Shown here piece after piece: positions 9,777 to 47,540 of a stretch of DNA of 64,000 nt (position 1 is the stretch's first letter; each line of letters begins with the position of its first letter). Location: NCBI GenBank assembly GCA_045837725.1, contig JBEWZL010000096.1, positions 62,001 to 126,000 on the forward strand, written 5' to 3'. Both the position numbers and the translations under genes were made by a program. The notes under the pieces were generated by a model that ran no database searches, had not been told where the DNA came from, and was given only the letters and a program-made list of their open reading frames with translations. This stretch comes from Vermamoeba vermiformis. Its lineage: Eukaryota.

Positions 9777-12700
9777 ATGTCTAAGACTCGAAGCGTTTTA
9801 ATATGCTTAGGGTTGGTATTCGCCTTTGCGAATTCACAAGGTAAGATCTCACTAAAATATTGGCTGCGGATGCAGATCCCTTCAAGTCTGTAAATTACAT
9901 GTATGCTAACGATAATTTAATCTATAGCAATCCAATGCGGTGGCTTTTTCGTATCCCCGTCCGGCCTCTACTTCAGTGCCGTCGTAGGCGGTGCTGCATC
10001 CACTCAGCAATCGCTGTTCATTTCTAACGCTGGTCTTACCGACACTACTTTCGCTAAATTTGCTATTGAAGGCCCTGGCGCCGATAGATTCACTATGGAT
10101 GGTCAAGCTCCCGCTCAGATCAACAAAGGTCAAACCCTTGAAATCAAGCTCTCGTTCACGGCTACTGCTTTGGGCGATACTGGTGCAGTTCTCACTATTG
10201 AGACCGCTGTTTCAAACGCTTCAATCGTATTGAAAGGTTTAGGTAAGTGATAAGTTGTCAAAGGACGAAATCGTACTGAAATTCCGGAGTTGATGTACCG
10301 ATCCGCTTACGCTTCGTCCCAGATTCTGCTACGGACAACATTTTTTGTGTATTAATTGCTAACCACTAATTTTCTTAAAGGATTCGCTGGTCTTGGTAAC
10401 GATAAGGAACCTTCTCTGCAACGCATCCTCGATACCATGTCCTTCAATATCAATGTTGGTGATGATGATCCTGCCACTAGCGTCATTAACTCCGATGACG
10501 CCAAGGCAAAATCTGCTCTCCTTGGAAAAGACGAAATTGCTGTGCCCAGATTCGTCAAGTCAAACGCTAAATTGCCTGTTACTCTTACTGTTATCGCCTC
10601 TTTCACTGCCACCTCTCAAAATCCCGCTGCTCTTTTTGGCTACTACCACGCTGGAAATGCCGCTGGCGTCGAGGTGAGTTTTCCATTCCCGATCCAAAAA
10701 TCGTTGCAAAGCCAGACTTACTGATCTGAAATTTCTTCAGGAACTCTTCACTTTGTCTAACCAACCCGAGACTAACGCTCAAGGCCTCTCCAACATCGCT
10801 GTTGGTGCCTTGAGATTCGAGCCTGGTGCTTCTACTTTCGGTTTTTATGCCGGCTTCCCTGCCCTCAACAAGGTTTTCTACAGTGAAGACTCTTTGAACG
10901 CTAACTCTCACAACATCCGCGTCTACAAATTAGCCGATGACGAATACCTTTTCTGCGTTGAAGACGGCTATTTGCCTGATTACAACGATTTGGTCGTCGT
11001 TGCTCGCAACGTCAAGCCTGCTCCCAACATGGTTGTCACTAACTACGGTCAACGCTCTTACCTCACTAACTCCATTGAACGCGGTGTTTTCGACGAGCAC
11101 TTGGGCTTCTCTAGAATCTTGGTCCCCGGCGGTGCTACTTGCTTCGAAACTGGTTCAATCAAGCTGAAGAACTTCGGTACTACCACCGTCACTGTTAGCA
11201 AGATCGAAATTGCCAACCCCGATTTGTGGGCCATCGCTGGCGTCACTTTGCCTCTCACTCTCGCTGCCGGTGCCGAACAAATTGTTACCGTCAACTTCAT
11301 TGCTTCTACTGGTGACAGAGGCTGGAGACAGTCTACTTTGACCATCACTAGCGACGACGCTGGATTTGAAACTCGCGTCATTGCTTTAGGTGGTGCTTAC
11401 ATGCTAGAACAACAAGGTGGTCACGAAAACACTCTCGAAGACTTGTCCTACGCTTGGGGCTACCCTCTGATGTGGGATCACATTTACCTCCTCTCTCAGA
11501 TCGGTAACGGTTGGGCGTTGAGTGAAGATCCTAATCATCCCCTTCACGGTGATGAAGTCCGCTCCAAGTTGTGGAAGCGAGCTGTTGAGCGCAACGACCT
11601 TTACGTGCGCCAAGCTGCTGCTTATCATCCTTGCTGCAACGATGACGTCATCATTCAAGTCGCCGGTTCTGAATTCAAACACAACCACTTGTGGTCTCAA
11701 TCTATCTGGCCCTTGATGATCGACGAGAAGGGCCCCGCTGAAATGTCCATCTTCAACCCAACTCCTAACCCCTTCCCCGTTGTCATCTCCGGTGAAGCTC
11801 ACACTGATCAACTTATGGGCGGCAAATACACTGGTATTCGCACCTTCCCTGTTCGTAACCCCATGGGCCACTTGGTTCGCGACACTTACCTCTTCGTGCA
11901 AGACTTTGCCGCTGCTGGTTGTGGTGACGCTGCTGGTCAAGCCAACTGCGACTTCAACGACAACGTCTACCTCTTCAACAACATGGCCCCTGCTGATGCC
12001 ACCTCCTGGAACCCCTTCGATCAACAAATGGCCCTTGGCAATCCTGCCCTCGTCTTGGAATTCACCCAAGCTACCATTGGCTACAATGACGCTAACAACC
12101 GTGCTACTGGCTTCAATGACATCATGATCAACAGCAGAGACGTCGCCCCTGGCAGCAACTCTCACGACGCTTCCAAGTTGAACCTCGACACCACTGCTGG
12201 TACTCTCACCGTCACTTCAACTGCCACTGATATCTCTGGCAATGACAACGCCAACGGAAACAACCTCATCAACGGTCTCGCGTTGGGCTTTGACGGCTCT
12301 AGCCACACTTTCTCCGTCGTTGCTCGCATCAAGCAATACACTGACGCCGTCAAGGGTGGTATCTTCTTGGGCTTCGACAAGGACACTTTCATCCGCGCTG
12401 CTTTCACTGGTGGCAACAACATTGAAGTTTGGACCGAGAAACACGGTACCGGTCAAGCCACTAACATCCCCATTAAGGCCGATCTCTTGGCCAATGTTGA
12501 ATGGTGGGAACTTCACTTGGCTGCTGACCCTACCGACGGCACTGTTAAGGTTGCCTACAGAGCCATCAACAAGGACAAAACTACCTCTGACTTCAGCGGA
12601 TCTAACGCCTTCACTTTCGAAGCTCCTTACTACGGTCGTATCTTTGACGTGTACAGCAAGGCTGGTATCTACGTCGTTAACGCTCAAGGTCAAAACCCCA

Positions 12701-13023
12701 GCAACGTCGTCTACGATCACTTCTCGATTGTCCCTGGCATGCCTTCTCAAGGCTGCTCTGGTCCCGTCACCACTCCTCCTTTGGGCAGTGGCACTCCTTC
12801 TTCGACTACCACTCCCTCTGGCGACAACTCACCTTCGTCTACTACCACTCCCAACACCAACAACTCGCCTTCTGGCAACACCCCCAATACCATCAACGCC
12901 CCCAATGTTATCTCCAACCCGAACGTTCCTTCCACGAACAACAACCAAGTCTCATCGGCTCAATCAGTAGTTGTTAGCGGCATTGTCATGTTGGTTGTTG
13001 CTCTTATTTATTTGGGCTTTTAA
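9777..13023 (+). CDS. Large cell-surface protein: signal peptide, 2x (ASH/Ig-like + conserved beta domain), ConA-like domain, S/T/P/N stalk, C-terminal GPI or TM anchor
   Basis: Exons 9777-9840, 9928-10242, 10381-10673 and 10741-13023 join in frame. Signal MSKTRSVLICLGLVFAFANSQ. The internal repeat ends in EDGYLPDYNDLVVV and ANCDFNDNVYLF. Hydrophobic end SVVVSGIVMLVVALIYLGF. Strong C/T third-position codon bias. Confidence 0.85.
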
Positions 13024-13267
13024 TTCGATAATATCGAATAATTTTTGATTTTTTCTAATGTAAATAAAGTAGTATTCCTATAATACCTGACTCTTTATTC
13101 GCTCAATCCGCGAATAGTTCAATTTATAACCGGTACTTCAGCAAACAAAAGTTACTCAAGAAGGCGCTGAGCGTTACATTTCCTATTTGAATCGCAGAAA
13201 TTTTGGTTTGAAAACTCGGGCTCGATACGATTGGCAACCGAAACACGTTGTGAACAACACAAACACA

Positions 13268-14294
13268 ATGGAGAAGAAAACAGGCTCCTCATATTCATTT
13301 CGAGATAATTATAACACCTTTGGGGTTGGTGGCTATTACACACAGTTTGGTGACACGTACAGGTAACTAAGATCTTGATCCCAAATCCACCACAGAGATT
13401 TTTATTCGTCCTAACTATAATTTTCCTCGTTATACTAATTAAGAATAAACCAACTTACCATACTGTTTCAATTTTTAAATAATGTCGAGTATTTGAATTC
13501 AAATAAAATTCTTATTTTCTTACCAGAAACCCACACGAATATGATATCAACTCGGCTATGAAAGAAGCATTTTATAAACGATGGTTACAATACTTTGATT
13601 GGAAAAAACCCAAAAGGTAGCTTGATAAAGGAGAGCTTGCCGTGATCCTGTTCTCAGGACTCATACCGTTTATTAGGATATACGATTTGGCTTGTGGAAG
13701 TGGAGAAGTCACGTTATTTTTCGATAAATTAGGCAAAGCTCTCACTGAAGCAGAAAAAGTACCTGAAGATCACATTACCACCGAAGCAACGGATCCCTAC
13801 ACTTACAAGTACGCACCCCTATAACAAATATTCGCGTTTATATGTCTTTCCGATATTAATATGGTCATAGAGCGTTTGAAGAGCGAGTAGGAAGGCCAGC
13901 AGAACAAATTTCATTCGAAGACATTGAAAACGGCAAACTATGGTGCGTTAAACACCATTTTAATAATTTTATTATGAATAACTGATTTACTATGCCACTA
14001 GGGGTCGTAGATATGACATGATTATTTCTAGCTTCGCGATGCATTTGATCGATGAAACAAGGCTATTATCCACGTGCAATCAGATGTCCTTCGTCGCGGA
14101 TTATCTCGTCATTATTTCTCCGCACAAAAAACCCGATATTAACGAAGCAATGGGCTGGACACTAAAGTACGCCTTAATAATACATTCTTATCATTCGGTA
14201 GCAGGCTTACTCACGTTGATCTTTTAGGGATGAATTTGTGCATGAACGAATTCACATGAGGCTATATGAATCATTGTATAAAGAAACATTTTAA
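13268..14294 (+). CDS. Small class I SAM-dependent methyltransferase-like protein, multi-exon
   Basis: Spliced product: GVGGYYTQFGDTYR|NPHE, motif I IYDLACGSGEVT, ATDPYT, YDMIISSFAMHL, LVIISPHKKPDI. Confidence 0.75.
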
Positions 14295-30800: not shown

Positions 30801-33015
30801 AGTTTATATATATTAATATTTACTATTATTAATGCAGCCCACGAAATTATCGAAGCTGTTGCACAAGATCCAAAAGCTGTGGGGATTGTACAACACAAAG
30901 GCCGTAAATTTCAATAGGTAACAATTTAATTTCAAAATTTAAACTAAAATATTAACGATTATTAATATAGGGAGCATTTGCTTGAGATTTGTCTGTTGAT
31001 TAGCAAAATCATTGACGACTCCGTGCAAGATACTTTCATCAGGTACTTCATTTGCAAAGATAATCCAATCACATTATAATAGAGCCATATTAATCGTTAT
31101 TATTTTTGCAGTACTAATAGTCGAGTGCCAAAAATGATGAAAACGAATTTGATTTCAAACAACGTTATGATCACCGCAATTAAGAATTTATTGCTCTCAG
31201 CAATCATCAGTTTCGAACACGCAAAGTTGACAGAGGCAATAGCGGATAATAGGAATACGTTCTTATATATCATGAATTCGGTCAACACGAAGATCTCGCA
31301 GATCAGATCCATCGAAAAATATGTTCGAGCGTTGACTTTGCCAGTACGCGATATTGACCCTAATAACGCTACTCAATGCGACGTTATGATCCTGAAACAT
31401 ATCTCGCACATGATTGGCTTCTTGGCTAATTCTGCAAATTTGAGATTTGCATTGGACAACAAACTTAGCGCAATCACTGAAATTTCGCTGAGCGACGATG
31501 ACGTGTTTGATAAGGCGATTCCAATGATCGCACTCAAGTCGAAGCAATTGAAATCACTCTCTTTGGCTAATGTGTCGTACTTACAAACAAAACTGTTCGT
31601 GGAGCATGTGCCGAAGATAGTCAGCTTGACGTCACTGGATCTGTCTAACAGTCCTATCAACGAAGCGTGTTTGATGGCACTGACGACATTAACGGCGCTT
31701 AGATTCCTAGATATTTCCAAGATTCAAGACATTACCGACGAATCTCTCAAAGTTTTCTTCCAAGCTTGTGGATCCGGCTTGGAACGACTAGATATCTCAA
31801 GTAAGTTTCTATACCTTTACAAACATTACTATTTCATAACAAGAAATAAGATTGCAAGGCAATTAAGGCCTTTTTGTGAAAAAGTGGACTTTTTTATAGA
31901 AAATTGTTTATCCGGCTTAAATTTTCTTGTTTTATTTAGATACGAGAAGAATTAAAGGCGGCTCAATCAATTATTTGCTAATGAACACCACTCGATTACA
32001 ACACTTGAACCTGAACGGCTTGGCGAACATCACCGACGATACAGTTGTGGCTCTAGCGCAGAGTCCTACAGCAGGAGTATTGAAGTCTATTCATATGATT
32101 GGTGTGCACACTGGATTGACCGAACAAGTCGTGGATGTGTTGACGAACAGAACCACTGCACTGACGGATCTAAGTCTAGGTATGACGTCATTATAGGCAA
32201 TCACATAGTGAATTAAATTTAATTGCCATTGTTATAGGAACAATTAAGAAAATCGGAGATAGTTTATCGAAGTTAGCAGATCTGGCACCGAAGTTGAAAA
32301 CTTTGACACTGAAAGGCAAGATTTAACAACGCGTCGTCGTTTATAAGGACCTTTTAATTAATATCTGCTCTTAGGCATGAACGCTACTGATATTGGCTTC
32401 AAGCCAATTTTATCAAATTTAACCAACGCGACACGATTGGTCATTCGCGCGTGCCTTGGTTTGACGGACAAATCATTGGCGACATTGCCTGCAAGCAACA
32501 CTTCACTGCAATCACTGAGTTTAGGAGGGTGCTATAGTATTACTGGCGAGTGTTTCTTAACTCTACGAAACACCTTGACGAGTCTGACGAGTTTGGATCT
32601 GAGCGATGTGACGGCACTGGATCCGGTGCACTTCAGAAAATACGTGTCAAAACTGCACTTGTTGTCACATTTGCAGCTCAACTTCTGTCAGACACTCGAC
32701 GACGATTGCTTCATTGAGATTTTCCCGCACTTGCCGTTCTTACGAACACTCTCCCTGGACAGCAGCCACGTGACAGATGTCACCATCAAACATCTCGTGA
32801 AACATTGTCCGCACTTGGAGCGTTTGGATCTGACCAATTGTTTGCGACTGACCGACAAATCGTTGAATTATTTGACGCTGATGAAGTCACTCAAAGAACT
32901 GTGCATCAAGCACTGTCAATTCTCGGCACCTGCGCTAGAAAACTTGCAAGAGAAATTGCCCTTGGATAATCTACTGACTTCGAGCGGTAGTTATAAGCTA
33001 CGGCAGCACTTTTGA
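27804..33015 (+). CDS. Clu-domain (clustered-mitochondria family) protein with helical/TPR-like middle and C-terminal leucine-rich repeats
   Basis: DWNKEFQELL; GGIAGGDK; ASHELKGL; FPLM|ILIDYKGYR; YG|SSNAG; GPGDQEVHIGTDGRYYCIDLARVFPCE; LRPEFV; LHREGINIR|HLGRVR; then many FBXL-type LRRs (LxxLDLS..C..LTD). Confidence 0.85.
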
Positions 33016-33289
33016 AATAAAAAGGCGCAAGATCCATTTTTTGGGCCACAAAATCTTGATTGTTTGGCATTAGAATGCGATGATGTGCTGGGAGTTGATT
33101 ACTCTAGGCATGTAAATAATCATCAGTTTATAATTATAAGAAAGTGTTTCATCGATGAGGAGATACGAAGAGTTCACAACTTTTATCCGAAAAGTTCAGA
33201 AATTTGTTAGAACACGATATTTAGCGTTCCTTCGACATTTTTTGTCATTAGTTAATACTTTATAACACGTAACAAACGTAAACTTGAAA

Positions 33290-33572
33290 ATGTCGTCGAG
33301 GTAAGAGCATAACTGGAGCGGATGTGGGTTGGAATAGCAATGTGGCTTGAAATATTTCGCGCAGATTTAATCCCTACAACCCGGAAGAAAAATCAAATCC
33401 GATCAAAATTGAAGTGGCGAATGAAAATGAGGATCAAAGCCCATCAAATGTCGTGAATAATAATAACAATAATAGTGGTAATAATGACGTGGCTAAAGAA
33501 CTTACTCCAACAGAAGTAAAAAGAACCCATCTGGTTTTCGATGACTCTTCTTCATCAGAGAGTTCGGAGTAG
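33290..33572 (+). CDS. 72-aa low-complexity microprotein, 2 exons, absent from the ORF track
   Basis: AAAATGTCGTCGAG|gtaaga...gcag|ATTTAATCCC gives MSSRFNPYNPEEKSNPIKIEVANENEDQSPSNVVNNNNNNSGNNDVAKELTPTEVKRTHLVFDDSSSSESSE*, with canonical splice sites. Confidence 0.6.
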
Positions 33573-33638
33573 CAATATTATTAATATTACTATATTTATT
33601 GTAATATATAGCACATAATTATAAACACTGTCATAAAT

Positions 33639-34744
33639 AAACACGTTGTCGTGAATGCCGTTGCCATCCATGGATAAAAACAAGCAGTCAACGGTACCGC
33701 CGCTGGGTGTTGGTAGTGTGAAGTAGTCCGGGCACTCCCAATCACCACCTTCGCCTGGTTCACCGAGCACGAATGGGTGCTTGTACTTCCAATGTTTCAA
33801 GTCTTCGCTTTCATACAGCAAAGTCATCGCAAATCTGTTTCGCATGCCACTGCCGAGGATAAAATACCACTGCAATAAAAGTCAATTATCGTTAAGGCTA
33901 GATTAGAAAAATTGACCGTACTTTGCCGTTCTGGGTCCAAATGGTCGGGTCACGGAAGCCGACGAGAGAGCCTTCAAACTCCGAGGGAGGTCCAGCTACA
34001 ACAGGGTTGGCAGCGTCTTTGTACCAATTGATAAGAAGGCCGTCGTTGCTCTTCGGATAGGCCAGGCAGACGGTCTAAAGTAGGACGATGACACGTGTCA
34101 CAAAAATTTTAACGGATGTCAATACAACTAAACTTACTTGAGCACCAGAATCAACAACGTTTGGTTCATTAATTCCTGTATATATAGCCATGATTTTGGT
34201 ACCGTTGATGACGATTGCACTTCCGCTATTGAAAAATGAAATTAATTTGTGAAATTGGAATCAATTCGCCAAGTGAATCTTTACCTCCAAACACCGTAGT
34301 TATCAGCACCCGCTATAATTGAAATGAATTATTAAATTTCTAAACATTACGCAGACTTACGTTGGTCAGGAGACAGGCCAATGGGCAAGCGCTTCCAAGT
34401 TATAAGATCTTTTGACACAGTATGACCCCAATATTTAATATTAGTGCCATATACTGTCGTCGCATATTGATAGAAGACGTGGTAATAGCCTTGGTAGTAA
34501 AACATGCCATTAGGATCATTCATCCTTAAAGAATTACGGATTAGCAAAACATTCGCTTAATTGAATGAACGATATTTAAAATAGCACTAATGTTGACTAA
34601 TTTATTATATGGATTAAAATTTTCATTGAATTACCATAATTTATCAGGTAAGAAGTGAAACTTGGGTCGTTGCGGATCACTAAGCTCTCCGAGTGCCTTG
34701 AGAGCAGTAGCACTCAATAGTAATACGAATAGTAGCTTCTTCAT
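33639..34744 (-). pseudogene. GH32 invertase/beta-fructofuranosidase, 5' half; broken mid-exon by an inversion, exons otherwise intact
   Basis: Signal peptide [55 protein letters not shown]. Similarity stops abruptly after GIHDNVF at about 33639. Confidence 0.9.
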
Positions 34745-35036
34745 ATTGTTAATTTGTTGCGTTCTTTACGCACACCTTTCTCGTATGACACATAGCCAAA
34801 ATACCTCGGAAAAAATCACTTTTGTGTCTCCTTTGGATCTAAACAAGGAAGGAACAGAGCTTATTAATAGCTGTTGAATATTCTATACGTCATAGTGCCA
34901 CCGAATCAAGAAACAAGCAGAAAATTCTCAACTTTTTCTTCTTGTCTCGTTTGTCCGGTCTCATCGCATTAAATTCCAACAAAACATATTTTCATTAAAT
35001 AATCTCATAGCCTACAACACATAATCACTTTTTACA

Positions 35037-35986
35037 ATGGGAAATATGTAAGTTAAATCGACATAATTGATAATTGATCTGACATGTGATTTGTGTTTAG
35101 AGCGACATTCGAGCAATTACCTTCGCCGCTTAGAAATTTAAATGAAGACAATATGGTCGTATTATTGCAATATTTACATGTCTCAGATTATGTGCATCTG
35201 ATGTCGACTTGCCGCAAGTTCAATAACGAGACTTTAGGCCCTGTAAGTACTTCGTAACCAAATTTAAATTTGATAAATTAAATTTGAAATAATTAACATG
35301 GCCATATTGCCTTTAAAAACTCTGAAATTTCCGGAGATCTGGCATCCAATCACATCCACTTTACTAACTGCCGTTATTTGAAGAATAATTACTATTGGGC
35401 TCAATTAATAAACCGTCCAGCGCCTTTCCCGTCACGATCGGCCCAATACAGCCTCGTCAATCATATCCTAACGACAACGCGTAACGGAAGAAAATTTATC
35501 GTTGATGGCCAGCCAATCGATTTAAATATGGCAATTGATACACGCAACAAAAGATTAGTGAGCCATTTTGACTTTAGAAAGCATATTAAGGAGTATTATT
35601 TGAAAGCAAAGTGCAGTAAAACTTTGCGTAAATTACTGAAGCCTTTTACGAAAGGTACAAACGGAAAATTATCGCCAGAGATTAAAATTGTCGAGAATAT
35701 TCAATTGGACAAGTTTTTTTGCAAATCGGATCCGCTTGAACGAAGCACAATGGCAGATGCGACTTTTGTAGTGGATCTTGGCGTCGATGCAACTTCATTA
35801 GAGAAGTTGAATAATATGCAACTGCCTGCTACATTTAAAAGTCGCCGCATAGTCTACAAATTATCGAATAAGCAAGCACAACGCGAAGAATTTAAATTCC
35901 TCTCGCGTGCTTGGTCAGAAATGGTGCCTGATAAACCCAAATTCGGTAAAAATATGCAATGGAACCGAAAACATGTTCCAAAGTAA
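35037..35986 (+). CDS. F-box protein with N-terminal MGN (possible myristoylation) and unknown C-terminal domain
   Basis: Micro-exon ATGGGAAATAT|gtaagt, then LRNLNEDNMVVLLQYLHVSDYVHLMSTCRKFN (F-box pattern) and NNYYW, joining ORF 35378..35986. Confidence 0.65.
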
Positions 35987-36115
35987 TACACGTGTAATAA
36001 ACAGATTTGAATTGCTGTTAAATAAAAGACAAATTTGCCGCGCCAAACACTGTTTCAAAAGCAAGCCCGTGAAACGCGAGAGCACAAGGGCAACGTAGCA
36101 CTAAATAATATAGAT

Positions 36116-37760
36116 ATGGAGTTACCTGTAGAGATTATCGAGATTATATTGGCCAACGTGAGCTATCAAGATTTGTGCAGGTAATTAACGATCAGATTCG
36201 CCACCTCGACCACCTAAAAAAATACAATTTAGTTTCGTTGTAATATAATGTATTGATTATTTAATAATTATTTTAAACCGTGTGCCTCATTTTTTCTAAT
36301 TTTTTAATTGGAATTCTAGAGGCAGAAGAATATCTCGAAAATGGCGGGACGCAGCTGCCGACTTACTTCGTCGTGGTGCTTACAAACGAGTAAGTATGGT
36401 TAATATTTTGATTATATTGTATTTTTAATGACCATTGTGTTGCTTCAGAAAACGTTGGAAGAAAGAGTTCAATTCCTTCTCTTCAAAATTCAAAAAGAAG
36501 CCAAAAAGAGTGGCAAAAAAGATAAATTACTCAAAGAAGACCTTAATGCGATACTAACGGTAAGTTTTAACTATGATATTTTGCCAATTAATCGCCGATT
36601 TCATCTTGTTTCAAATTGCATCCGTGTTTTCGTAGCTGATTTAATCTTGTTTAAATTGCAACCGATTTCTTACTCACTTGTCATTATTATAGTACGCATT
36701 AGACACTAAGAAATTAGGCGAATCGCCTGTAATTTCTAAGTCCCCGATTCAACTGCCACTATGCCTTGACACAATTGTTCCTCTACGCTGAAGATGAAAT
36801 CGGTCTTTGGGACCATTTTGACGAGGCTATAGCTAAAATAGGTACTTATATATCAATATATTGCTTACAATTATTCGTTAATCAAAAAGTTTCAGAAAGC
36901 AAATTCCACTTTATCATCCGTTCACCGCTGCTCAGCGCATACACAAAAATTCGTTGCCAAGAATTGTACGAGCTTAATTTGGACTTAGTCAACGAAGCTC
37001 TTAACACTCACGCCAATTTAAACCTTGAAGTAAGCTATAAATATATAATGTCTAAGCGAATTAATGCTTGTTAGGTGGATCCGCGTAACGACGGCAGACC
37101 TGAAAACGCTGAAAATCTGGTCAAAGTGTTCAAACATTACTTTGATAATTTTGTACCCGCTATTAAGAAGCTAAATAAGTAATTGTATTTATCTTGGCGA
37201 AATTTCATACTGACTTTTGTGCAGGGCAGCGCTCGGTTGGTTTCAGCACATCTACTACAAGTTTGAGGATACGAGACCGATTAAAGCGATATTAGTAATG
37301 CATTTATTTACTTCCTTCAGTTATTGTGCAATCTTTGGAGCGTGGTTCTTCAAAGAAGGTAAGTTAAAATTTCATACTAAATGAATAGACGAAATGTTGA
37401 TCGGTCATACTGCAGAGCAAAAAATCAATGCCACGCCCTGATAGAACAAGACATTACATATTATTAATGAAAATATTTGCATCAGCAATATTAGGCAACA
37501 AACACAAAGAAGAGTTCATGCGTGGAGCAGATGCGTTCACCGCTGAAGTTGCGCAGCAATTCGAGGAAACTGTTAAGCATTTAATGGTACGTGGCTATAT
37601 ATTTCCGAATAACTGGTACATTAACGATGTTATATAGACGATTGAGGTGGATCCAAGCGCTCTATTTCATAAGGTCAATTTCTCAATTCGTGAGATCTTC
37701 GAGGCTCTAGCAATAGCGAAGGACTTTTATCGCGATAAGGAAAAGAATAAATTAATATGA
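36116..37760 (+). CDS. F-box + degenerate RasGAP-like domain protein, copy 1
   Basis: F-box MELPVEIIEIILANVSYQDLCR|GRRISRKWR. RasGAP-like traces: LNLE|VDP..ENAENL, ILVMHYLLPSV, RHYILLMKIF, KEEFM. Confidence 0.7.
36390..36547 (+). repeat. Near-identical 158-bp intron+exon block shared with 40145..40302
   Basis: By-eye alignment gives 6 mismatches in 158 nt, 3 in the intron and 3 in the exon. Confidence 0.85.
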
Positions 37761-37849
37761 AGATTTTTTTGAATTTGTGGACGTGGCTTGGATAAACTCA
37801 AAGCGCAGAAATGGATCTGATCCAACTTCTACTTTATTCCACAATTGCG

Positions 37850-39490
37850 TTACATCAGAAGTGCACCGGTCAAAGCAGCAACGAAACCAACAGCAGTCCA
37901 GTTCTTAACTGCCTCGCTGACCTTCTTAGTTGGCGATGCAACTGGCACATTGGCACCAGGAGTGCTCGCAGCGCCAGGCGGCAAAGGACACGAAGCAGTA
38001 GCGTTGCACAAGTATGTTGATGGAGCCAAAGTGCGTGAGAGTGAAAGGGAGACTTGGAACTTGTAGTTCTCGATGCTGACACCCTTGTACGATGCGTCCA
38101 CGGCACCACATTGCACATCGTTCTGCGTGTAGAGGTTGAGTTGATTGAAGTCAACAGAGCTGCAGTCATTTAGCGTCAAGTCATTGCAGGTCACATTGAC
38201 CGGATCCAAGGAGCAGCGAGGGAATGAATATGGCAAGCAGTGATAGAAAGAGACATAGGACGGGTCCATCTCACAGCTCATGACCATTATATCGCCGTGC
38301 GAATTCTTTCCAAAACCAGTGCCAAAGTAGTTGTTAATGTCTTTCGAAACAACAATTTTTGCCTTGGCACTCCAAGATTTGGTCTCGTTACGCTGGAACA
38401 AAAACGCTGAGCCAAACGAGCCAGTTTCACCTCCTTGCACTGATTTCTTGGAGATTTCGTTGAAATTTCCATCGGCAGCGTGGAGCGAACGTTTCACGAC
38501 TGGAGGTCCACCTTCATTCGGTGCACCAATCAAGACGTAGTTTGAGTCAATGGTGAAATAAATTGTGCCGACATCGGAGTTCTGACTAAGGCCGAGATCG
38601 TCTCCAAGCACAATCTGGTCTTGCCACACACCGTTGACTTTGGAGATGAAGAGCAGGTAGCCATTACCCACTGCAACGCCAAGTCGTGGGTCAGCAGTGT
38701 AAGGACTAACCACCACAACAGTGTCCTGATCGACCAAGAATGTATAGATGCTAGAAATAGAGCCAAGACTGTACGTGGTGCCAATGTCGTGGGATTGCAG
38801 CAAATTCCATTGCAGGCCAGTACGCTCGTAGATATTGAAACTCGATGAGGAGTTCCATGCGAGTATATGAGTGTCGGTAACGTCGAAGGAAGGCACATTG
38901 CCGCCGATATTGATCGTAGAAATTTCGAGCACGTCGGCTTGTTCCCAGTCAGTTCCGTTAAAAACCAAAGTAAGAATACCCTGGTCGCTAGGGATAATCA
39001 AAGAGTCATCGGACAGAATCTTGTAGAAGCTGTAGAAGGTACCCAATTGGATAAAGCTCTCGTTCGCAGCTTGGTTGGTCGCATCCAGTTGCATCATGCG
39101 GATCCTATTAGATTTGTGGAGGAAATGCCCGAACCACTTGCCATTAGTTGCAGGTTTCCAACGGTTGGCAACGGTAGAATAATTGTAAACAGAATTATAA
39201 GTGTTGCTGTCGGCATCCCACTTGTAGATGGTGATGGCGCCGCTTCCGGGTGGGTATAAGTACGCATTTGCAATCATATAATCTCCAGAAAAATCGCTAA
39301 GCGAAGGATAGCTACCATCAGAGCCGAATCTGTTGTCGTCAGAAACTTTTCTGCCGCCAGTTAAATCCAACGTCTGAAAAAAATTTTAAAATTTTTAAAT
39401 CCACAGTTTTTAGTCTTTACTTACCACATAACAGTTAACGACTGCAATACCGACGCTTAAAAATAGCACAATACATGCAAGACTTCTCAT
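37850..39490 (-). CDS. Secreted or GPI-anchored beta-propeller protein with FG-GAP-like repeats and a Cys-rich stalk
   Basis: Signal exon MRSLACIVLFLSVGIAVVNC|; DNRFGS; VLIGAPNEG; GSAFLF; YFGTGFG; Cys-rich region; P/A/S linker; hydrophobic end TAVGFVAALTGALLM. Confidence 0.75.
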
Positions 39491-39877
39491 TTGTGGTGCA
39501 GTGTTGAGACTTAAACGTTAACAAAATAAACTGTCCGTCGGAACGAAGGCCGCTTTTTGCGACTATAAATAGCCCGTTATCTGTAGTCCTTTTTATATAA
39601 ATAATGGAATGCGGAAACAAAAGATAGGGCCTACTAATACCAGGCGTATAAGTTCAACTGGCAAACGAATTAGAGTTACAATAAATCCGCCGTTCAAAAC
39701 TCAGCTTATTATAATCTCGCCCGATCGTTACAGCAAGTACATCAAATAATCGATTGCAGTCCCTATAGCTTGGTTAGTTCAACTTTTCAATGAATTTGGT
39801 CCCGAACAAAGCTCTTTTTTTTTGAGGCTTGTCTTTTTGGTTTGTGCACAAGAAACTGAGCAAGAGATCTGCTTTTT

Positions 39878-41472
39878 ATGGATTTACCCGCAGAGATTAT
39901 CGAGCTAATATTGGCTAACGCGAGTTATAAAGACGTGTGCAAGTAAGCTCACCGATCTAAATCCAGGGCTTCATTAAAAAAATAAATTTAAAATTGAATA
40001 GCAAGTCTTGCAATCAATTTATTATGTACTCGGCACTTTGCGAATATTTAATAATTTTTTTAATTAAAAATTAGAGCCAAAATAGTATCTCGAAAATGGC
40101 GCGACGCTGCTATCGACTTACTTCGCCGTGGTGCTTGCAAACGAGTAAATATAGTTAATATTTTGATAATATTGTATTTTTAATGACCATTGTGTTGCTT
40201 CAGAAAACGTTGGAAGAAAGAGTTCAATTTCTTCTCTTCAAAATTCAAAAAGAGGCCAAAAAGAGTGGCAAAAAAGATAAAATACTCAAAGAAGACCTTA
40301 ATAAGCTGCTTACGGTATTCTTTATTCATTCTTTAAAGAATTGCTTTCCGCGAGATTTCAATCTCTCTCCCTCGATCCGTTCAAAAGTTTTGTTACGCAG
40401 CACCTCATTAACCTTACTATTATTGTAGTATGCACTAGATACGAATGTTATGTTAGAATTGCCTGCCATAGTTAACCACCGCAATGCAGCTCAATCTATT
40501 ATCCGCTTGTGGCTCTACGCAGAGGACGATCTCGGTCTTTGGGACTATTTTGACAAAGTAATGGCTAAATCAGGTAGTATTATAAACTAAATTTACCATT
40601 TACCACTCATTTTTAACAATTTTTTGCTAGACAAAGTCCACATCCGCTCGCCATTGCTAATTCCTTATCTGCAACACAAGTGTCGAGATTTATATGAGCT
40701 GAATTTAGATCTATTAGACGATGCCATAGATAAAAATGCGAATTTAAACCTTGAAGTAAGCTATAAAACCATATCTAAGCGAATTTAACGCTTGTTAGGT
40801 GGATCCGGCCAAAGGCGGCAGACCTGAAAACGCTGAAAATCTTGTCAAAGTGTTCAAACAATATTTCGACGCCCTTCTGCCTACTTTAGAAAAGATGAAT
40901 AAGTAATAGATGCTTATTTAAGTGAAATTCTAATTGATCATTAGAGCAACGCTCGGTTGGTTGCAACACATCCACAAAAAGTTCGCGGACATGAGACTAC
41001 TTAAGGCGATATTAGTTATGAATTTTCTTACCCCGTCAATTCTTAGTCAATCAGCTGATCGAGATATCCATCGGCTAGTAAGCACAAATTATTGATTTTG
41101 GTACAACAAAAATATTGACCTGGATCTAGGGCCCGAAAAAGCCAAAACCTGAACCACTCATACGAGTAAGAAAGTATATATTGGTATGTAAGATTTTGAC
41201 GTCAGCGATGCTGGGCAATACGCACAAGGAGGATTTTCTACGAGGAGCAGATGCGTGCACTGCTCAAGTTGCACTGCAATTAGAAGACGCTATTAAACGG
41301 CTAATGGTAAAGAATATTAATTCTTTCATAAAAATAGCGCTATACTAACGATATTTTATAGACTATTGAAGTTGATCCAAGTGATCTATTTCGTCCGTTC
41401 AATTTCTCAGGGAGCGAGATCTTTGAGGCGTTGTCAATTATTAAATCATATGAAGGCAAAAAACCTCAATAA
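39878..41472 (+). CDS. F-box + degenerate RasGAP-like domain protein, copy 2 (paralog of 36116..37760)
   Basis: MDLPAEIIELILANASYKDVCK|AKIVSRKWR; same exon structure as copy 1; KTLEERVQFLLFKIQKEAKKSGKKDK identical; LNLE|VDP..RPENAENLVKVFK. Confidence 0.72.
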
Positions 41473-41568
41473 TAATCTTAATGTAACATATTAATAATTT
41501 TGCATAAAACAGTTAACTATAACTAAATGTACGAGATCCGCTAGTTTTATTTACAAAGTGTTGTTGTT

Positions 41569-44136
41569 CTATTTAATATTAGAAGGCTTGGCGTTATTAT
41601 TATTGTTATTATTCGAAGAATTGTTGTTATTCTTAATTTTTAGTTTTTCAAATCCAGATCCGATCTTCTTAAAGAACGACGTAGACTGTTCCTTAAACTC
41701 TTCAAATCCATCCTTAATCTTTTCTTTCGTCTCTTTGCCCCAATCATCTACCTTATGTACAATCTCGCCTAATGTCTCTAACGCTCTGTTTCCACCTTCT
41801 TCCGAATCCGAATCTGAATCGTAATCTGAGTCGTAATCTTGGCCTTTTAATTTCGCGACTAATCTGCGCGCTATTAATTTGGCCCATCTTAACTTCACTT
41901 TTGTGCCGTACTGCGAGCATCGCGTGTTGTCGTAATGGCCCGGCTAAAACAAACCAAAACATTAGTCATGTTAGCAAAAATTTAATCATACACGGATATA
42001 TTTAAAAGTTAATGAAAATGAATAGTAATATTAGAATAGACTAATAATAATAATAACAATAGCCTTTTATGTTTCAGCAAAAAAAAAAAAGAATTCGTGG
42101 ATCAAATCCGGAGTACTACTTTTTACGCAGATGTAATAGCATTTAATATAAAGTTCTGATTGTACTGTTATAGAAAAATTTTCGAGTAGTTGTTAAGTTT
42201 TCGAAAAGTGAAATTTACCTCGTATTCTTTCATGCACTGCCAACAGAACTCGTACGAACACCGCTCACACGTCATGTGATTGCAGCCCCCGTCCTTCTGA
42301 ATGACCGCTTTGCAGTTCGGACACAATTTGGTGTAAAAGCGCTGCCACAGAGCCACGCGCACATCGGTCTTCGAGTGCGACATTTTCCACTTTTTGAATT
42401 CTTCGCACGTCTTGCCTGGGTGATACTAAACATAATAAATTTATTAAAAACTTCAGAAATTGAATTTCTAGAGATTTTTAGATCCGCCAATAAGTCGTGG
42501 ATCAGATCCGGATGTACACCCTCAAAATCGCAACTTTAACGAGCATATAGTACTTACCTCATCGCTGCAATCAAAACAGTACTCATAATTACATTGGCTG
42601 CAAATGATTTTTGAATCGTTTTCGTGTTGCCTTGGCATCGCGTTACCGCATCCAGCTGGATTCGGACACCTGTTGCAACATATTGTTAGCTCATATATAT
42701 GTCATATATATTATATTTATGAGTACTTGCCATCTCATATTCGGATTCTTATTAATCGCATTGTTTCGTGCAAAATCGATGTATTTTACGAAGACCGGTT
42801 TAGGCAGAATAAATTTCAACTGAAAAATGGAAACACGTTAGTTTTATACTTATAATACTATTATAAATTAATATAAGTGTAATATTTAATATTTTGGTAT
42901 TAACTTACGTCGTCATAAGTGCACATATTTTCACAATTTGGATCCGGACATTTTATGTCAGTTTTTCCGCTATTGATGTTCTGTGTATAATAATCTTGAA
43001 GGCACTGCAAATGATGATTATATTAATATATGACCTATTCTCTATATTCGCACATGTTATGCAAATAAAAATTAAATTACTTACGCTGCCGCAGTAATTA
43101 TGTTTACATTTCTCAAAAACGTAGCCGGATCCAATAATAACTTCATCCATGCAAATAGGACACTCGAAGGGCTTCTTATTTACAGGGTCATAGTGTTCGA
43201 TATATACTCGTTGATGCATCTATGATAAGAAGTTCAATGCAAGATCTTGATCTGATCCAAAAAAACTTTTCGGATGTGGATTGATCCCATGATCGTATTG
43301 ATTTATAATACTATAGTGCTATTATATATACTTACATATTCTTCATCGATATCATCAGGCGGCAAACAGCTGCTCACGTGTTGTTCAATTTCAGCGCTAC
43401 CGAATAATTCGCCGCACATCGGACACTGCGCAATATCAGCGCCTATTAGTAACCCTTTAGTATTAATATAAGGCATTGTTTAATAGCCATAATTCACAAT
43501 ATTCTGAAAAGATTTTGTGTCGCGAGATGCGAAAACCGATCGGATGGAAAACTCGAGAAAAACAGATCAAGAACGTTCCAATATCGAATAAATTCATATT
43601 AAAATGCATATATTGTGTGGGTATGATATTTATAAATAACGTACCGAGCGATTGAGATTGAATCAATTGTTGTTCAGTTAAGAATCTGATCTGATCGTCA
43701 CTTAATTGATTCAAATTGAGATTCTGAAACGCTAAATCGTCATTTAATATACTACTAAAATCGTGATGATGGTGAGGGTGGGACTGCTGTGGTTGTTGAG
43801 GCTGTAAGAATGGATTTGTCGGTGAAATTGAGATTTGGTATTTTCGTTCGATATCTTTCAGCATTTCCTCTTCCTCCATTTTTTTGGCAAATAATAGATC
43901 TTGTTCTACGACGAAATTAATTATTTAATTATTAAATAGTCGAAAAAAAGAATAACATTTTTGGAATCCGTTCTGGAATTCCAGACAAGCGTTTACCGCG
44001 ATAATAGCAATATGTTAATTATATAAGTACCTTCTCTAGCCAAGTCTTCATTAGATTTTCCTTGTTGCCGCTCTTCTTCTTGAATTTTGAGAGCCAACTC
44101 GAAATCTAATTCTTCTTGTGACTTGAACTCGCTCAT
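41569..44136 (-). CDS. RBR (RING1-IBR-RING2) E3 ubiquitin ligase with N-terminal ubiquitin-binding motifs
   Basis: MIU-like [12 protein letters not shown] and [15 protein letters not shown]-like [24 protein letters not shown]1 [45 protein letters not shown]2 [30 protein letters not shown] with the catalytic Cys. Confidence 0.9.
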
Positions 44137-44249
44137 TTTAATACAACTTAATTATTATACACCTGTAGTAGTATTATGGAGCGTTACATCAGAATAAAAT
44201 TTCGTTTCCGTTCGCACAAAAGCTGGACGGAAATTTGACCGTTTTTTGT

Positions 44250-45318
44250 TGGAAACTTGGTCGTACTGACCCTGATCGCATGATGTTTTTGCCTTTTGCC
44301 AATGCTTACCGTTACGACGTTGGCTGGAACTACGCCCCACGAAGCTTTTACGACCCTGTTAAGGTAAAAATCTATCATTGCTACCCTTCAAAGCTATCTT
44401 TTTGCTAACATGAAAATTCGCATGCCAGAAACGCCAGATCCAATTCGGATGGTTGAACGAAGGCAGAGATACCTCGAGTAAGTATTATGCGTCTAATTTT
44501 ATGAATTAAAGGTGGTTATAATTAATTTTGTGCAGTCAATGCTAAAGAAGGTTGGGCTGGTGTCATGACTTTGGCCCGCGAGATCTACATGTTAGTATAC
44601 TTTTTGACATATTTGATGCTTGATAAATACTAACAATGCGTCCTATAATAGTCGTGATGACAATACAGTTGGATTCAGACCTATTGAAGAACAAAAACAG
44701 TTGCGCAAGTCCACTCTGTTCACGTTGAATAACTACGTGTTCCCGAATAATCTCGTTCGATGGGACAATATTTTCCGCAACGCAAAAGGAAATCAACTCG
44801 AATTTATTGCTAAATTTAAAATTTCCGCTGCTCAACAGCCTACGTAAGTTTTACGAAAGTTAAGTATTGGATCTGATCTAATTTTTGTTCGTCTTCAGTG
44901 ATCGATTTGGCATTATTTTGTTGTCGGATACTTTGCAAACGGAATACACGAGAATATTTGCAGATTTATCGCAGAATCAAATGGGCTACAATTTGACTTA
45001 CGGATCCCTCAATCCTAAAACAGATCACAGCGTAAATCAACTTCCTTTTACTTTCACCAACTCCCTCACGTAAGTACATACATTATATATTACCTTCACT
45101 AAACTAAGAATTCATTTCTTAGTTTGCATGGATTCGTGGATCACTCAGTCATCGAAGTTTTCGTGAACGAACAAATCGTGCTCACGCCCAGAGTGTACCC
45201 TGAAGGACCTGACGCGCTTCATATGGGCCTCTATTATGAACAAGTATCTGATGGCACTCCTTCGCAGATCACTTTGGAGTCCTTGATTGTGTACAGCGTT
45301 GGATCTATTTGGGACTAA
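44250..45318 (+). pseudogene. GH32 invertase, 3' half (last propeller blades and beta-sandwich), with no own 5' exon
   Basis: Starts abruptly at TGG: WKLGRTD...YDVGWNYAPRSFYDPVK|KRQIQFGWLNE...GWAGVMTLAREI...RPIEEQKQLR...VDHSVIEVFVN..LTPRVYP. Six exon pieces splice in frame to the stop at 45318. Confidence 0.9.
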
Positions 45319-45571
45319 TTACACTTGGAGTTGTATTGATCTTTCGCAATTTATACTAAGATCTTGATAGTAAATTAAAAATTGTTACACATTGAATTGG
45401 CCGTTTTCTAAAATTGTTTCCTAACATTTGCGACGACCGTTCACTGAAAACCGGTCGTATTTTCTAAACGACCGCGTAAAGAAAATTTCTATTTTTCGTT
45501 TTTGAATTACCTAGGCCAGAACATAAAGCAGCATTATTTTGTCTAATTGGCGCAACTCGATTCCGAATCCG

Positions 45572-47540
45572 TTAGTTTCCACCATTAATACTTGGCAGCA
45601 ATTTCGTGGTCTCGTCAACACCACTCACAACGGACTTGGTCCAGTCATCTTTGATTATAATCAATATAAATATAGAACCTATAAGCGACACAACTCCTCC
45701 TATAGCCAAAACTGCAGCGTACTTGTCGAAAACTAACAATATGACAGATCCGCCCAACGACGCAATGATCTGCGGAACACAAAGGGCTAAATTTAACGTC
45801 GCTAAAAATAGCCCTATTTTAGACGTTAATAAATGAATTTCAATACGAACAATTCGTCAAAAAATAAAACTTACCTTTGTCCGTTGTTCCTTGAACCGCT
45901 ACTGAAGCAATTGCTCCAGGAATTGTAAATGTCTAAAAATAGACTTTTAGGACCAATATTGATTGTTTTTGGTACTTACCGATGCCCATGATATGCCGAG
46001 AGCGCCATAAATTAAAAATCCTAAGTATTCGTTGTTGACCAACATTGTAGCTATTAACGAACATCCCTGACATAAAGCTGTCAATAATTTATATTAAGAA
46101 AGCATATCTATCAGATTTTTTGCTTACTTGAACGAGTTGACTGAAAAAATAGAGTTTCTTGTGACCGAAGATTTTGATCAGAGGAATCAATAGCAGAGAA
46201 TACACGACTGATACGAGCCCAAAGAGACTAGTAGCTGTTGACGCCATTTGAACTCCGTTCTGGTACTTTAAATAATTCTCAGAATTGTGATCTGCGTTCG
46301 GATCTCCACCCATAATCTGAGTGCCGAACCAAGTCGATGAAAACATGTTCCAGGAAAACCAAGCGTAGAACGTAAACAAATGGATGACGAATAAGCCTTT
46401 CAGTGGCTTTGGCAAGCTCGGCAAAGCGAATAAAATTTTCTGCGAAATAAAATTGATAAATGGCAATTGCCTAATTGGGAATCGTACCTTAAACGTGGCG
46501 CCGATTGAAACTGCTTCGTGATTATCTCCGTATTTGATATTTTCCTTGACCATAAGTAAGCAGACAGCGACGGTAACCAACACCACGATAGTGCTCAATG
46601 AATACATAGCTCGAATTTGAGTTACCATAAAAGGCAATATTATTAAAATGTTGAAATTGAGCCATGGTATTCGACCACCGAGTAATCCTCCGAACACTGC
46701 ACCAGTACTAAGATGTCCAGAAATGCATGCGTTGCCTAGTGTTTGCTGTTCTGAGGGCGCTACATCCGTCAATAAGGCTTGAACCTAATATAATATGTGC
46801 CATTAATTAATGGGAAAATAATTTGCTTGATTTTGCGATTAAATGAAACAAAAAGTTGATCTCAACCGATCAAACTTACCGGCGATTGAACCACGTTTAA
46901 AGCAAAATCTAATATCCAAAAACTAGTCGCTGCTATTGCTAGTCCCCAAGGTGTATAATTGTGATTGCTATTGTCCGCTGGTTGAGTTTCATTAAAGTTG
47001 TTCGATTGAGTTGTGTTAGAAAACTCATATTTGTCACCAAATGCCACCCCGATTACATCTGCATTTGCGAATAATTGCAATGATATAATGACTATTAAAG
47101 CGCCAACGGCTATAAATGGCTTTCGCTTGCCCCATCTGGGTCTCGCATGTCAGATCAACCGTAGACGTTATTTTTTTCCTTTCCTACCTTCCATTCCAGG
47201 CGTCACTCATAGCACCTACAATAGGTTGCACGACGATACCAGACATCGGCCTAAAATTAATGTGGTTTGAGAATTAATCGAAATAATTGATCCGGATGCA
47301 ATCTTTTCTCTGCTGTAAGAAGCGTCAACATTATAAATTGCACGTTAAAAATTTTAATTAATTATTTGACTGCCCTTACCCCGCAAGCCATACCCAGGGA
47401 ACAAGCCACTTCGCCAATCCAAACTGCAACAGTGTTGGTGACGTGTAGACATATTGTGTGGCTCGTACAAACGCCAAGCTGAGCATAGGAGACGTCAATG
47501 CTAATATTTTATACGCTGGTTGCCGTTCCTTGTACTCCAT
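45572..47540 (-). CDS. Sucrose transporter family MFS (SUC/SUT/SLC45-like)
   Basis: WVWLA|GPMSGIVVQPIVGAMSD; RWGKRKPFI; FWILDFALNVVQSP|VQALLTD; FYAWF; WFGTQIMGGDP; YQNGVQM; G|LFLATLNLALCVPQII. Confidence 0.9.

Follow-up and report, generated by a model that had tools for sequence, protein, structure and literature searches.

The window analysed here is a stretch of 64,000 bases from Vermamoeba vermiformis (contig JBEWZL010000096.1, positions 62,001 to 126,000), eukaryotic in character, with GT..AG introns of 48-110 base pairs (bp) and a guanine-plus-cytosine (G+C) content of about 39%. It holds a gene for a beta-fructofuranosidase (invertase) of family GH32 that lies as two halves on opposite strands, 10.6 kilobases (kb) apart. 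A single inversion with two breaks, in an ancestral gene that was contiguous, very probably accounts for all features of this arrangement, as judged from the geometry of the sequence. That the inversion is real, recent or polymorphic in the organism, and inactivates the gene, we hold to be somewhat favoured, at a probability of about 0.55. By descent the gene is a member of GH32, and the copy as assembled cannot encode the whole enzyme.

Two halves of one invertase gene

The 5′ half occupies 34744..33639 on the minus strand and encodes 258 amino acids in six exons (34744-34635, 34524-34361, 34312-34285, 34225-34138, 34074-33922 and 33869-33639), all with GT..AG borders. Its translation opens with an N-terminus resembling a signal peptide, MKKLLFVLLLSATALKALG, carries WMNDPNG, FRDP and WECPD, and has as its last residues ...GIHDNVF. 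Pfam family PF00251, the GH32 N-domain, matches exon 2 at 7.6e-20 and exon 6 at 1.5e-11, the latter over profile positions 144-212 of 307. Past ...GIHDNVF the reading frame runs on for 27 AT-rich codons of non-gene sequence (IYDSVYNYVLYITINIVILIILLLRTL) to a stop at 33557-33555, and this read-through tail (33555..33638, minus) overlaps the 3′ end of a convergent gene of about 72 amino acids. As assembled, the end of the 5′ half, GACAACGTGTTT, runs on into ATTTATGAC; a contiguous gene would instead read GACAACGTGTTT-TGGAAACTTGGT.

The 3′ half occupies 44250..45318 on the plus strand and encodes the remainder of the propeller together with the beta-sandwich at the C-terminus, 258 amino acids and a stop, in six exons (44250-44363, 44429-44477, 44536-44590, 44652-44843, 44899-45069 and 45123-45318). 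The protein reads from WKLGRTD... to ...SIWD, and its last exon matches PF08244, the GH32 C-domain (the beta-sandwich), at 5.9e-10. No AG acceptor precedes 44250, where the local sequence is ttttttgt/tgg with the slash at the break. An in-frame ATG ATG stands at 44280, about 145 bp from the divergent start of a gene for an RBR-type (RING-IBR) E3 ligase. Both the N-domain and the C-domain of a GH32 enzyme are present in the window; one continuous polypeptide holding the two is what the assembled copy lacks. An initial annotation, made from the sequence alone, had placed a two-half GH32 gene at these coordinates, with the signal peptide and the motifs NDPNG, RDP and WECPD in a 5′ half ending ...GIHDNVF, and with a 3′ half opening at WKLGRTD without a splice acceptor and containing ATG ATG at 44280. 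Splice borders, translation, Pfam and tblastn bear this layout out.

That annotation had also found no stops, frameshifts or broken splice sites in either half, which is correct: all 10 introns keep GT..AG and there are 0 internal stops. When the halves are joined in silico, the protein keeps 12 of the 12 invariant and 49 of the 51 nearly invariant residues of a family alignment (A1), in which the relative P0005 keeps 50 of 51. In the 5′ half, substitutions unique to one lineage number 12 for the window, 29 for P0005 and 20 for a second relative, P0002; in the 3′ half the figures are 7, 23 and 16. The last four residues of the 5′ half were misplaced by the aligner, which can only inflate the figure for the window. 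The window lineage is the slowest-changing of the three, so that any inactivation is very recent relative to the divergence of these species.

Relatives and the rejoined exon

Close relatives of the gene (about 80-88% identical) are single proteins of 512-513 amino acids that span both halves. A protein search with exon 6 gave two significant matches among 20 candidates, P0001 and P0002. The latter is a transcript-derived protein of 512 amino acids, labelled Vermamoeba vermiformis in EukProt. The P0001 cluster has 10 members, eight of which were examined, and includes the full-length 513-amino-acid forms P0005 and P0009. Four of the 10 (P0003, P0004, P0010 and P0011) are open reading frames (ORFs) of 109 amino acids called on genomic contigs of a relative, of 484,847 bp or less. 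They run unbroken from MRNLF... via ...SNGVGWKLGRTD... to ...SFYDPVK, where an intron evidently follows (VTDKPR), and they contain LSMESNGVGWKLGRTD in an uninterrupted frame as well. The intron after YDPVK is in the same place in the window (44363). As these ORFs of the relative are uninterrupted, the exon that is broken in the window was ancestrally one piece.

When P0005 and P0002 were compared with the window by tblastn, residues 1-253 fell on the 5′ half, ending at 33654, and residues 255-513 on the 3′ half from 44250; around the break, residues 181-253 lie on 33872..33654 and residues 255-327 begin at 44250. Local alignment gives identical ranges. Elsewhere in the 64 kb the same two queries found only chance-level matches, and no further GH32 piece. 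The initial annotation had named a gap or overlap at the junction, or different closest paralogs, as marks of two unrelated fragments. The halves abut without overlap, and P0002 is the closest relative of each, at 82.6% identity for the 5′ half and 88.4% for the 3′ half.

More distant relatives were few. A scan of metagenome contigs with exon 6, using exact 8-residue patterns that missed even an 81%-identical relative, gave 240 pattern matches and one relative (L001), an intronless GH32 gene 25-27% identical over its length and of no use for synteny. With P0003 as query, a scan of genome contigs returned 36 loci, all bacterial and 28-54% identical, and a scan of viral contigs returned no match. 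Among 1.84 billion representatives, nothing more than 46% identical to the amoeba GH32 clade was found outside its own cluster. The best prokaryotic matches to the amoeba exon are in Bacillota such as Oribacterium and Lachnospiraceae (28-54%), and among solved structures the best match is a sucrose-6-phosphate hydrolase from a bacterium; on these sequence matches an old bacterial origin of the clade is possible.

Flipping the block 33639..44249 joins the halves in frame, with the cut between the codons for ...NVF and WKL... in exon 6. The relatives read ...SNGVG or ...DVGIG before WKLG, and the window reads ...GNGIHDNVF before WKLG.... The earlier statement that the join has no apparent gap or frameshift is right as to frame and needs a qualification as to length, in that the hairpin loop of the joined exon is four residues longer than in the two closest relatives. 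Loop lengths were compared in an alignment of 118 family representatives (420-620 amino acids, from 149 beyond the query's cluster) to which P0005, P0002 and the joined window were added. Between the conserved S247 and the invariant G258 the family has 8-30 residues, and 22 of the 121 rows have 14, as would the joined window. In PDB chain 7vco the loop at exactly the position of the join is longer by eight residues.

In the MAFFT alignment the last 5′ residues of the window, VF, fall under the VG and IG of the relatives. Two positions before the column holding W or Y, V is the commonest residue (32 of 120 family rows), and I, L, V, Y or F stands just before that column in 76 of the 120. These columns favour a gene that would reach to 33639 over one in which HDNVF is non-gene sequence. 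The alternative breakpoint, after the ATT at 33654, was judged the less likely for the same reason.

The GH32 N-domain is a five-bladed propeller. An AlphaFold model of P0005, for which 76 of the 149 representatives were aligned with P0005 and P0002 (78 rows), has a predicted local distance difference test score (pLDDT) of 92.9 and a predicted template modelling score (pTM) of 0.92. In this model strands 240-248 and 252-261 are connected by a tight turn and the break falls at the start of the second strand, which, counting four strands per blade, places it inside predicted blade IV.

The junctions and what may have made them

The inverted block, 33639..44249, measures 10,611 bp and contains the GH32 5′ half, F-box-like genes, ORFs of 511 and 124 amino acids and the RBR gene. 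Its left junction is at 33638..33639 and its right junction at 44249..44250, and there is a repeat at neither. When the block is flipped in silico, the four junction sides pair into two undisturbed sequences: the GH32 gene becomes contiguous, the RBR gene comes to lie 179 bp downstream of the gene of about 72 amino acids, and nothing else is broken. This spacer consists of 66 + 113 bp, from the stop of the small gene (33572) to the putative RBR start (44136), and agrees with the ordinary gap of about 180 bp that had been predicted for the second junction.

Microhomology at the breakpoints, read by eye, is about 1 bp. There are 66 inverted-repeat pairs in 32000-47000, and the 25 longest include none that connects the junctions; the nearest (I11), 33587-33610 with 45084-45107, is an AT-rich pair of 24 nucleotides that is 75% complementary and lies 835 bp off on the right. 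Local alignment of the sequence within 100 bp on either side of the junctions does no better than chance, the observed score being reached in 276 of 500 shuffles in the inverted sense and in 248 of 500 in the direct sense. The repeat list and the shuffles agree with the initial annotation, which had noted about 1 bp of microhomology and no inverted repeats.

Two further observations were made at the junctions. An AATAAA hexamer on the plus strand (33636-33641) straddles the left junction, 64 nucleotides past the small gene's stop. In sequence so rich in A and T the hexamer could have arisen by chance; alternatively, the few bases to the right of 33638 could belong to the 3′ region of that gene. 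At the right junction, no stop interrupts the 26 codons that precede the break in the frame of the 3′ half (44172-44249, plus; ...AQKLDGNLTVFC), and there is an AG at 44220-44221. Trans-splicing from a GTGTTT donor at 33646 to this AG would be in frame and would add about 12 residues, and it was dropped as unparsimonious; GTGTTT is unlike the ten GTA or GTT donors of this gene.

The explanation that we favour is that a two-break inversion of 33639..44249 cut exon 6 of a secreted GH32 gene, with its second breakpoint within the 179-bp spacer between the small gene and the RBR ligase gene. The ends would have been rejoined without repeats and with about 1 bp of microhomology, as in end joining of two double-strand breaks. 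The 5′ half would still be transcribable from its own promoter, giving a truncated protein with blades I-III, half of blade IV and a nonsense tail of 27 residues, and the 3′ half would be deprived of promoter, start codon and signal peptide. With the 5′ product truncated and the 3′ half so deprived, this copy presumably makes no working invertase. Since neither half shows decay, the event would be very recent, or else polymorphic or heterozygous in the strain.

Several points weigh against this explanation. Both junctions are known from the assembled sequence alone, and the ancestral gene order around the block is a reconstruction. A clean flip with no coding base lost and no decay is also what an artefact of assembly or library would be expected to give, and no feature of the sequence shows that the inversion must have persisted for some time. 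The four-residue difference in the loop is located at the breakpoint, so that up to 12-15 nucleotides there could be junction filler and not ancestral codons.

The strongest competitor is accordingly technical: the gene of the organism would be contiguous and the 10.6-kb block flipped in the assembly, in scaffolding or by chimeric molecules in the library. We regard this as a serious though lesser possibility. It fits the perfect state of the two halves, which abut to the codon and have no lineage-specific defects. Neither arrangement has been sighted independently, and the organism's own GH32 was absent from the protein collection, where a search with the 108-amino-acid junction ORF among proteins of similar length gave three candidates, none of them significant. 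An artefact would, however, need two matching false junctions 10.6 kb apart. Misjoins that flip a segment are usually located at repeats or gaps, and the window has 0 N and no junction repeats beyond chance, which lowers the chance of an artefact.

There is a slim chance that the split is both real and maintained. Both halves would then be kept under selection as a heritable arrangement, with some cells rearranging their DNA so as to restore the gene or with a second, intact haplotype kept as a balanced polymorphism, or the truncated, secreted propeller fragment would have a role of its own.

A functional arrangement has a slimmer chance still. It could be a reversible on/off switch in the DNA, or an enzyme that assembles from two separately made halves; both had been offered in the initial annotation along with the inversion. 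Its geometry of inversion, its complementary halves and their lack of decay stand, the switch does not fit block ends that are without inverted repeats, and the two-piece enzyme is unlikely. Both halves do remain intact, and the ATG ATG at 44280 is close enough to the divergent RBR start that the latter could lend a promoter. On the other hand, no recombinase-like family was found in a scan of 15 + 4 ORFs or exons from the block and next to it, which took in part of the ORFs there. The relatives make one protein, and the break would fall within one modelled propeller blade, between strands 240-248 and 252-261. The 5′ piece has a signal peptide and a 3′ piece starting at MMFLPF would have none, which would put the two in different compartments.

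Least probable is that the halves only resemble one gene and are in fact pieces of two different GH32 paralogs, or arose by partial duplication: an in-frame ...LDGNLTVFC upstream of the 3′ half faintly echoes the ...MDGNGIHDNVF at the end of the 5′ half, but the echo in the DNA is at chance level (1594 of 2000 shuffles reach its score), for which a duplicated breakpoint segment upstream of 44250 was rejected, and the halves neither overlap in homolog coordinates nor differ in their closest relative.

Neighbouring genes and known systems

To the left of the block is the small gene of about 72 amino acids, with two exons at 33291..33572 (plus), convergent to the GH32 5′ half. Within the block, the RBR-type E3 ligase gene (about 44136-42168, minus) matches IBR at 8.8e-15 and RING at 5.8e-4, and 113 bp separate its putative start from the right junction. 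For the three F-box-like genes (about 35038-36000, 36116-37714 and 39878-41438), the label comes from three exon-level Pfam matches of 19.0, 18.9 and 14.9 bits, below the cut-off of 20.5. A single-exon ORF of 511 amino acids (39385-37850, minus) matches no Pfam family even at E≤10, and a further ORF of 124 amino acids lies at 41943-41569 (minus). Of the labels given earlier to the genes of the block, RBR ligase is upheld by both domains, F-box holds for the three genes only below threshold, and FG-GAP, given to the 511-amino-acid ORF, finds no Pfam match.

The F-box-like genes at 36115-37714 and 39877-41438 are a diverged direct (tandem) duplicate, seen as eight collinear repeat families with 71-88% identity at a spacing of 3720-3762 bp, and they flank the 511-amino-acid ORF on the opposite strand. 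Elsewhere in the window, positions 10001-14000 stand out by a higher G+C (0.44-0.49) and by a GC skew that is strongly negative (-0.14 to -0.17). A run search listed 20 sequencing runs, including DNA runs of the same sample (X1-X4) and three raw RNA runs under the same species label (X17-X19). Runs under other organism labels (X5, X8-X11, X13, X15 and X16, several guessed to be RNA) contain 5-13% of the words sampled from 33001-43000; this amoeba may be present in cultures or samples of other organisms.

If the inversion is real, the window holds a clean natural knockout of the secreted invertase of an amoeba by a tiny, repeat-free inversion, and an example of an end-joining rearrangement in an amoebozoan. 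It would make a useful marker of strain history, for instance, as a speculation, of a dispensable enzyme lost in culture. If it is an artefact, a local assembly error misleads annotation into two pseudo-fragments in place of one gene. The biology is ordinary in both cases. A full-text search that returned titles and the openings of abstracts brought up no publication on a Vermamoeba invertase or on this inversion.

As an enzyme, the gene compares with known GH32 beta-fructofuranosidases. The relative P0005 matches PDB chain 7vco at 5.5e-54 and the Thermotoga maritima invertase 1uyp at 4.7e-53, and the window shares with GH32 enzymes the NDPNG, RDP and EC motifs, PF00251 and PF08244, and the full set of invariant residues. 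It differs from enzymes of the 7vco and 1uyp type in that its gene is in two pieces on opposite strands, with introns and a eukaryotic signal peptide.

As a rearrangement, the case is of an ordinary kind, akin to other inversions that break a gene without repeats. Simple two-break inversions that disrupt a gene at a breakpoint have reportedly been described in Drosophila. The window resembles these in its balanced segment, with one break in a gene and the other in a spacer, and in its repeat-free ends that share about 1 bp, and differs in that its block is very small (10.6 kb), amoebozoan and known from one assembly alone. Inverted repeats are required for the inversion of intron 22 in human F8 and for the invertible switches of bacteria, the latter needing a site-specific recombinase as well. 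As in these systems, an inversion here would part the ends of a gene or a promoter from its gene; in contrast to them, the window is without inverted repeats at its junctions and without a recombinase among the ORFs scanned.

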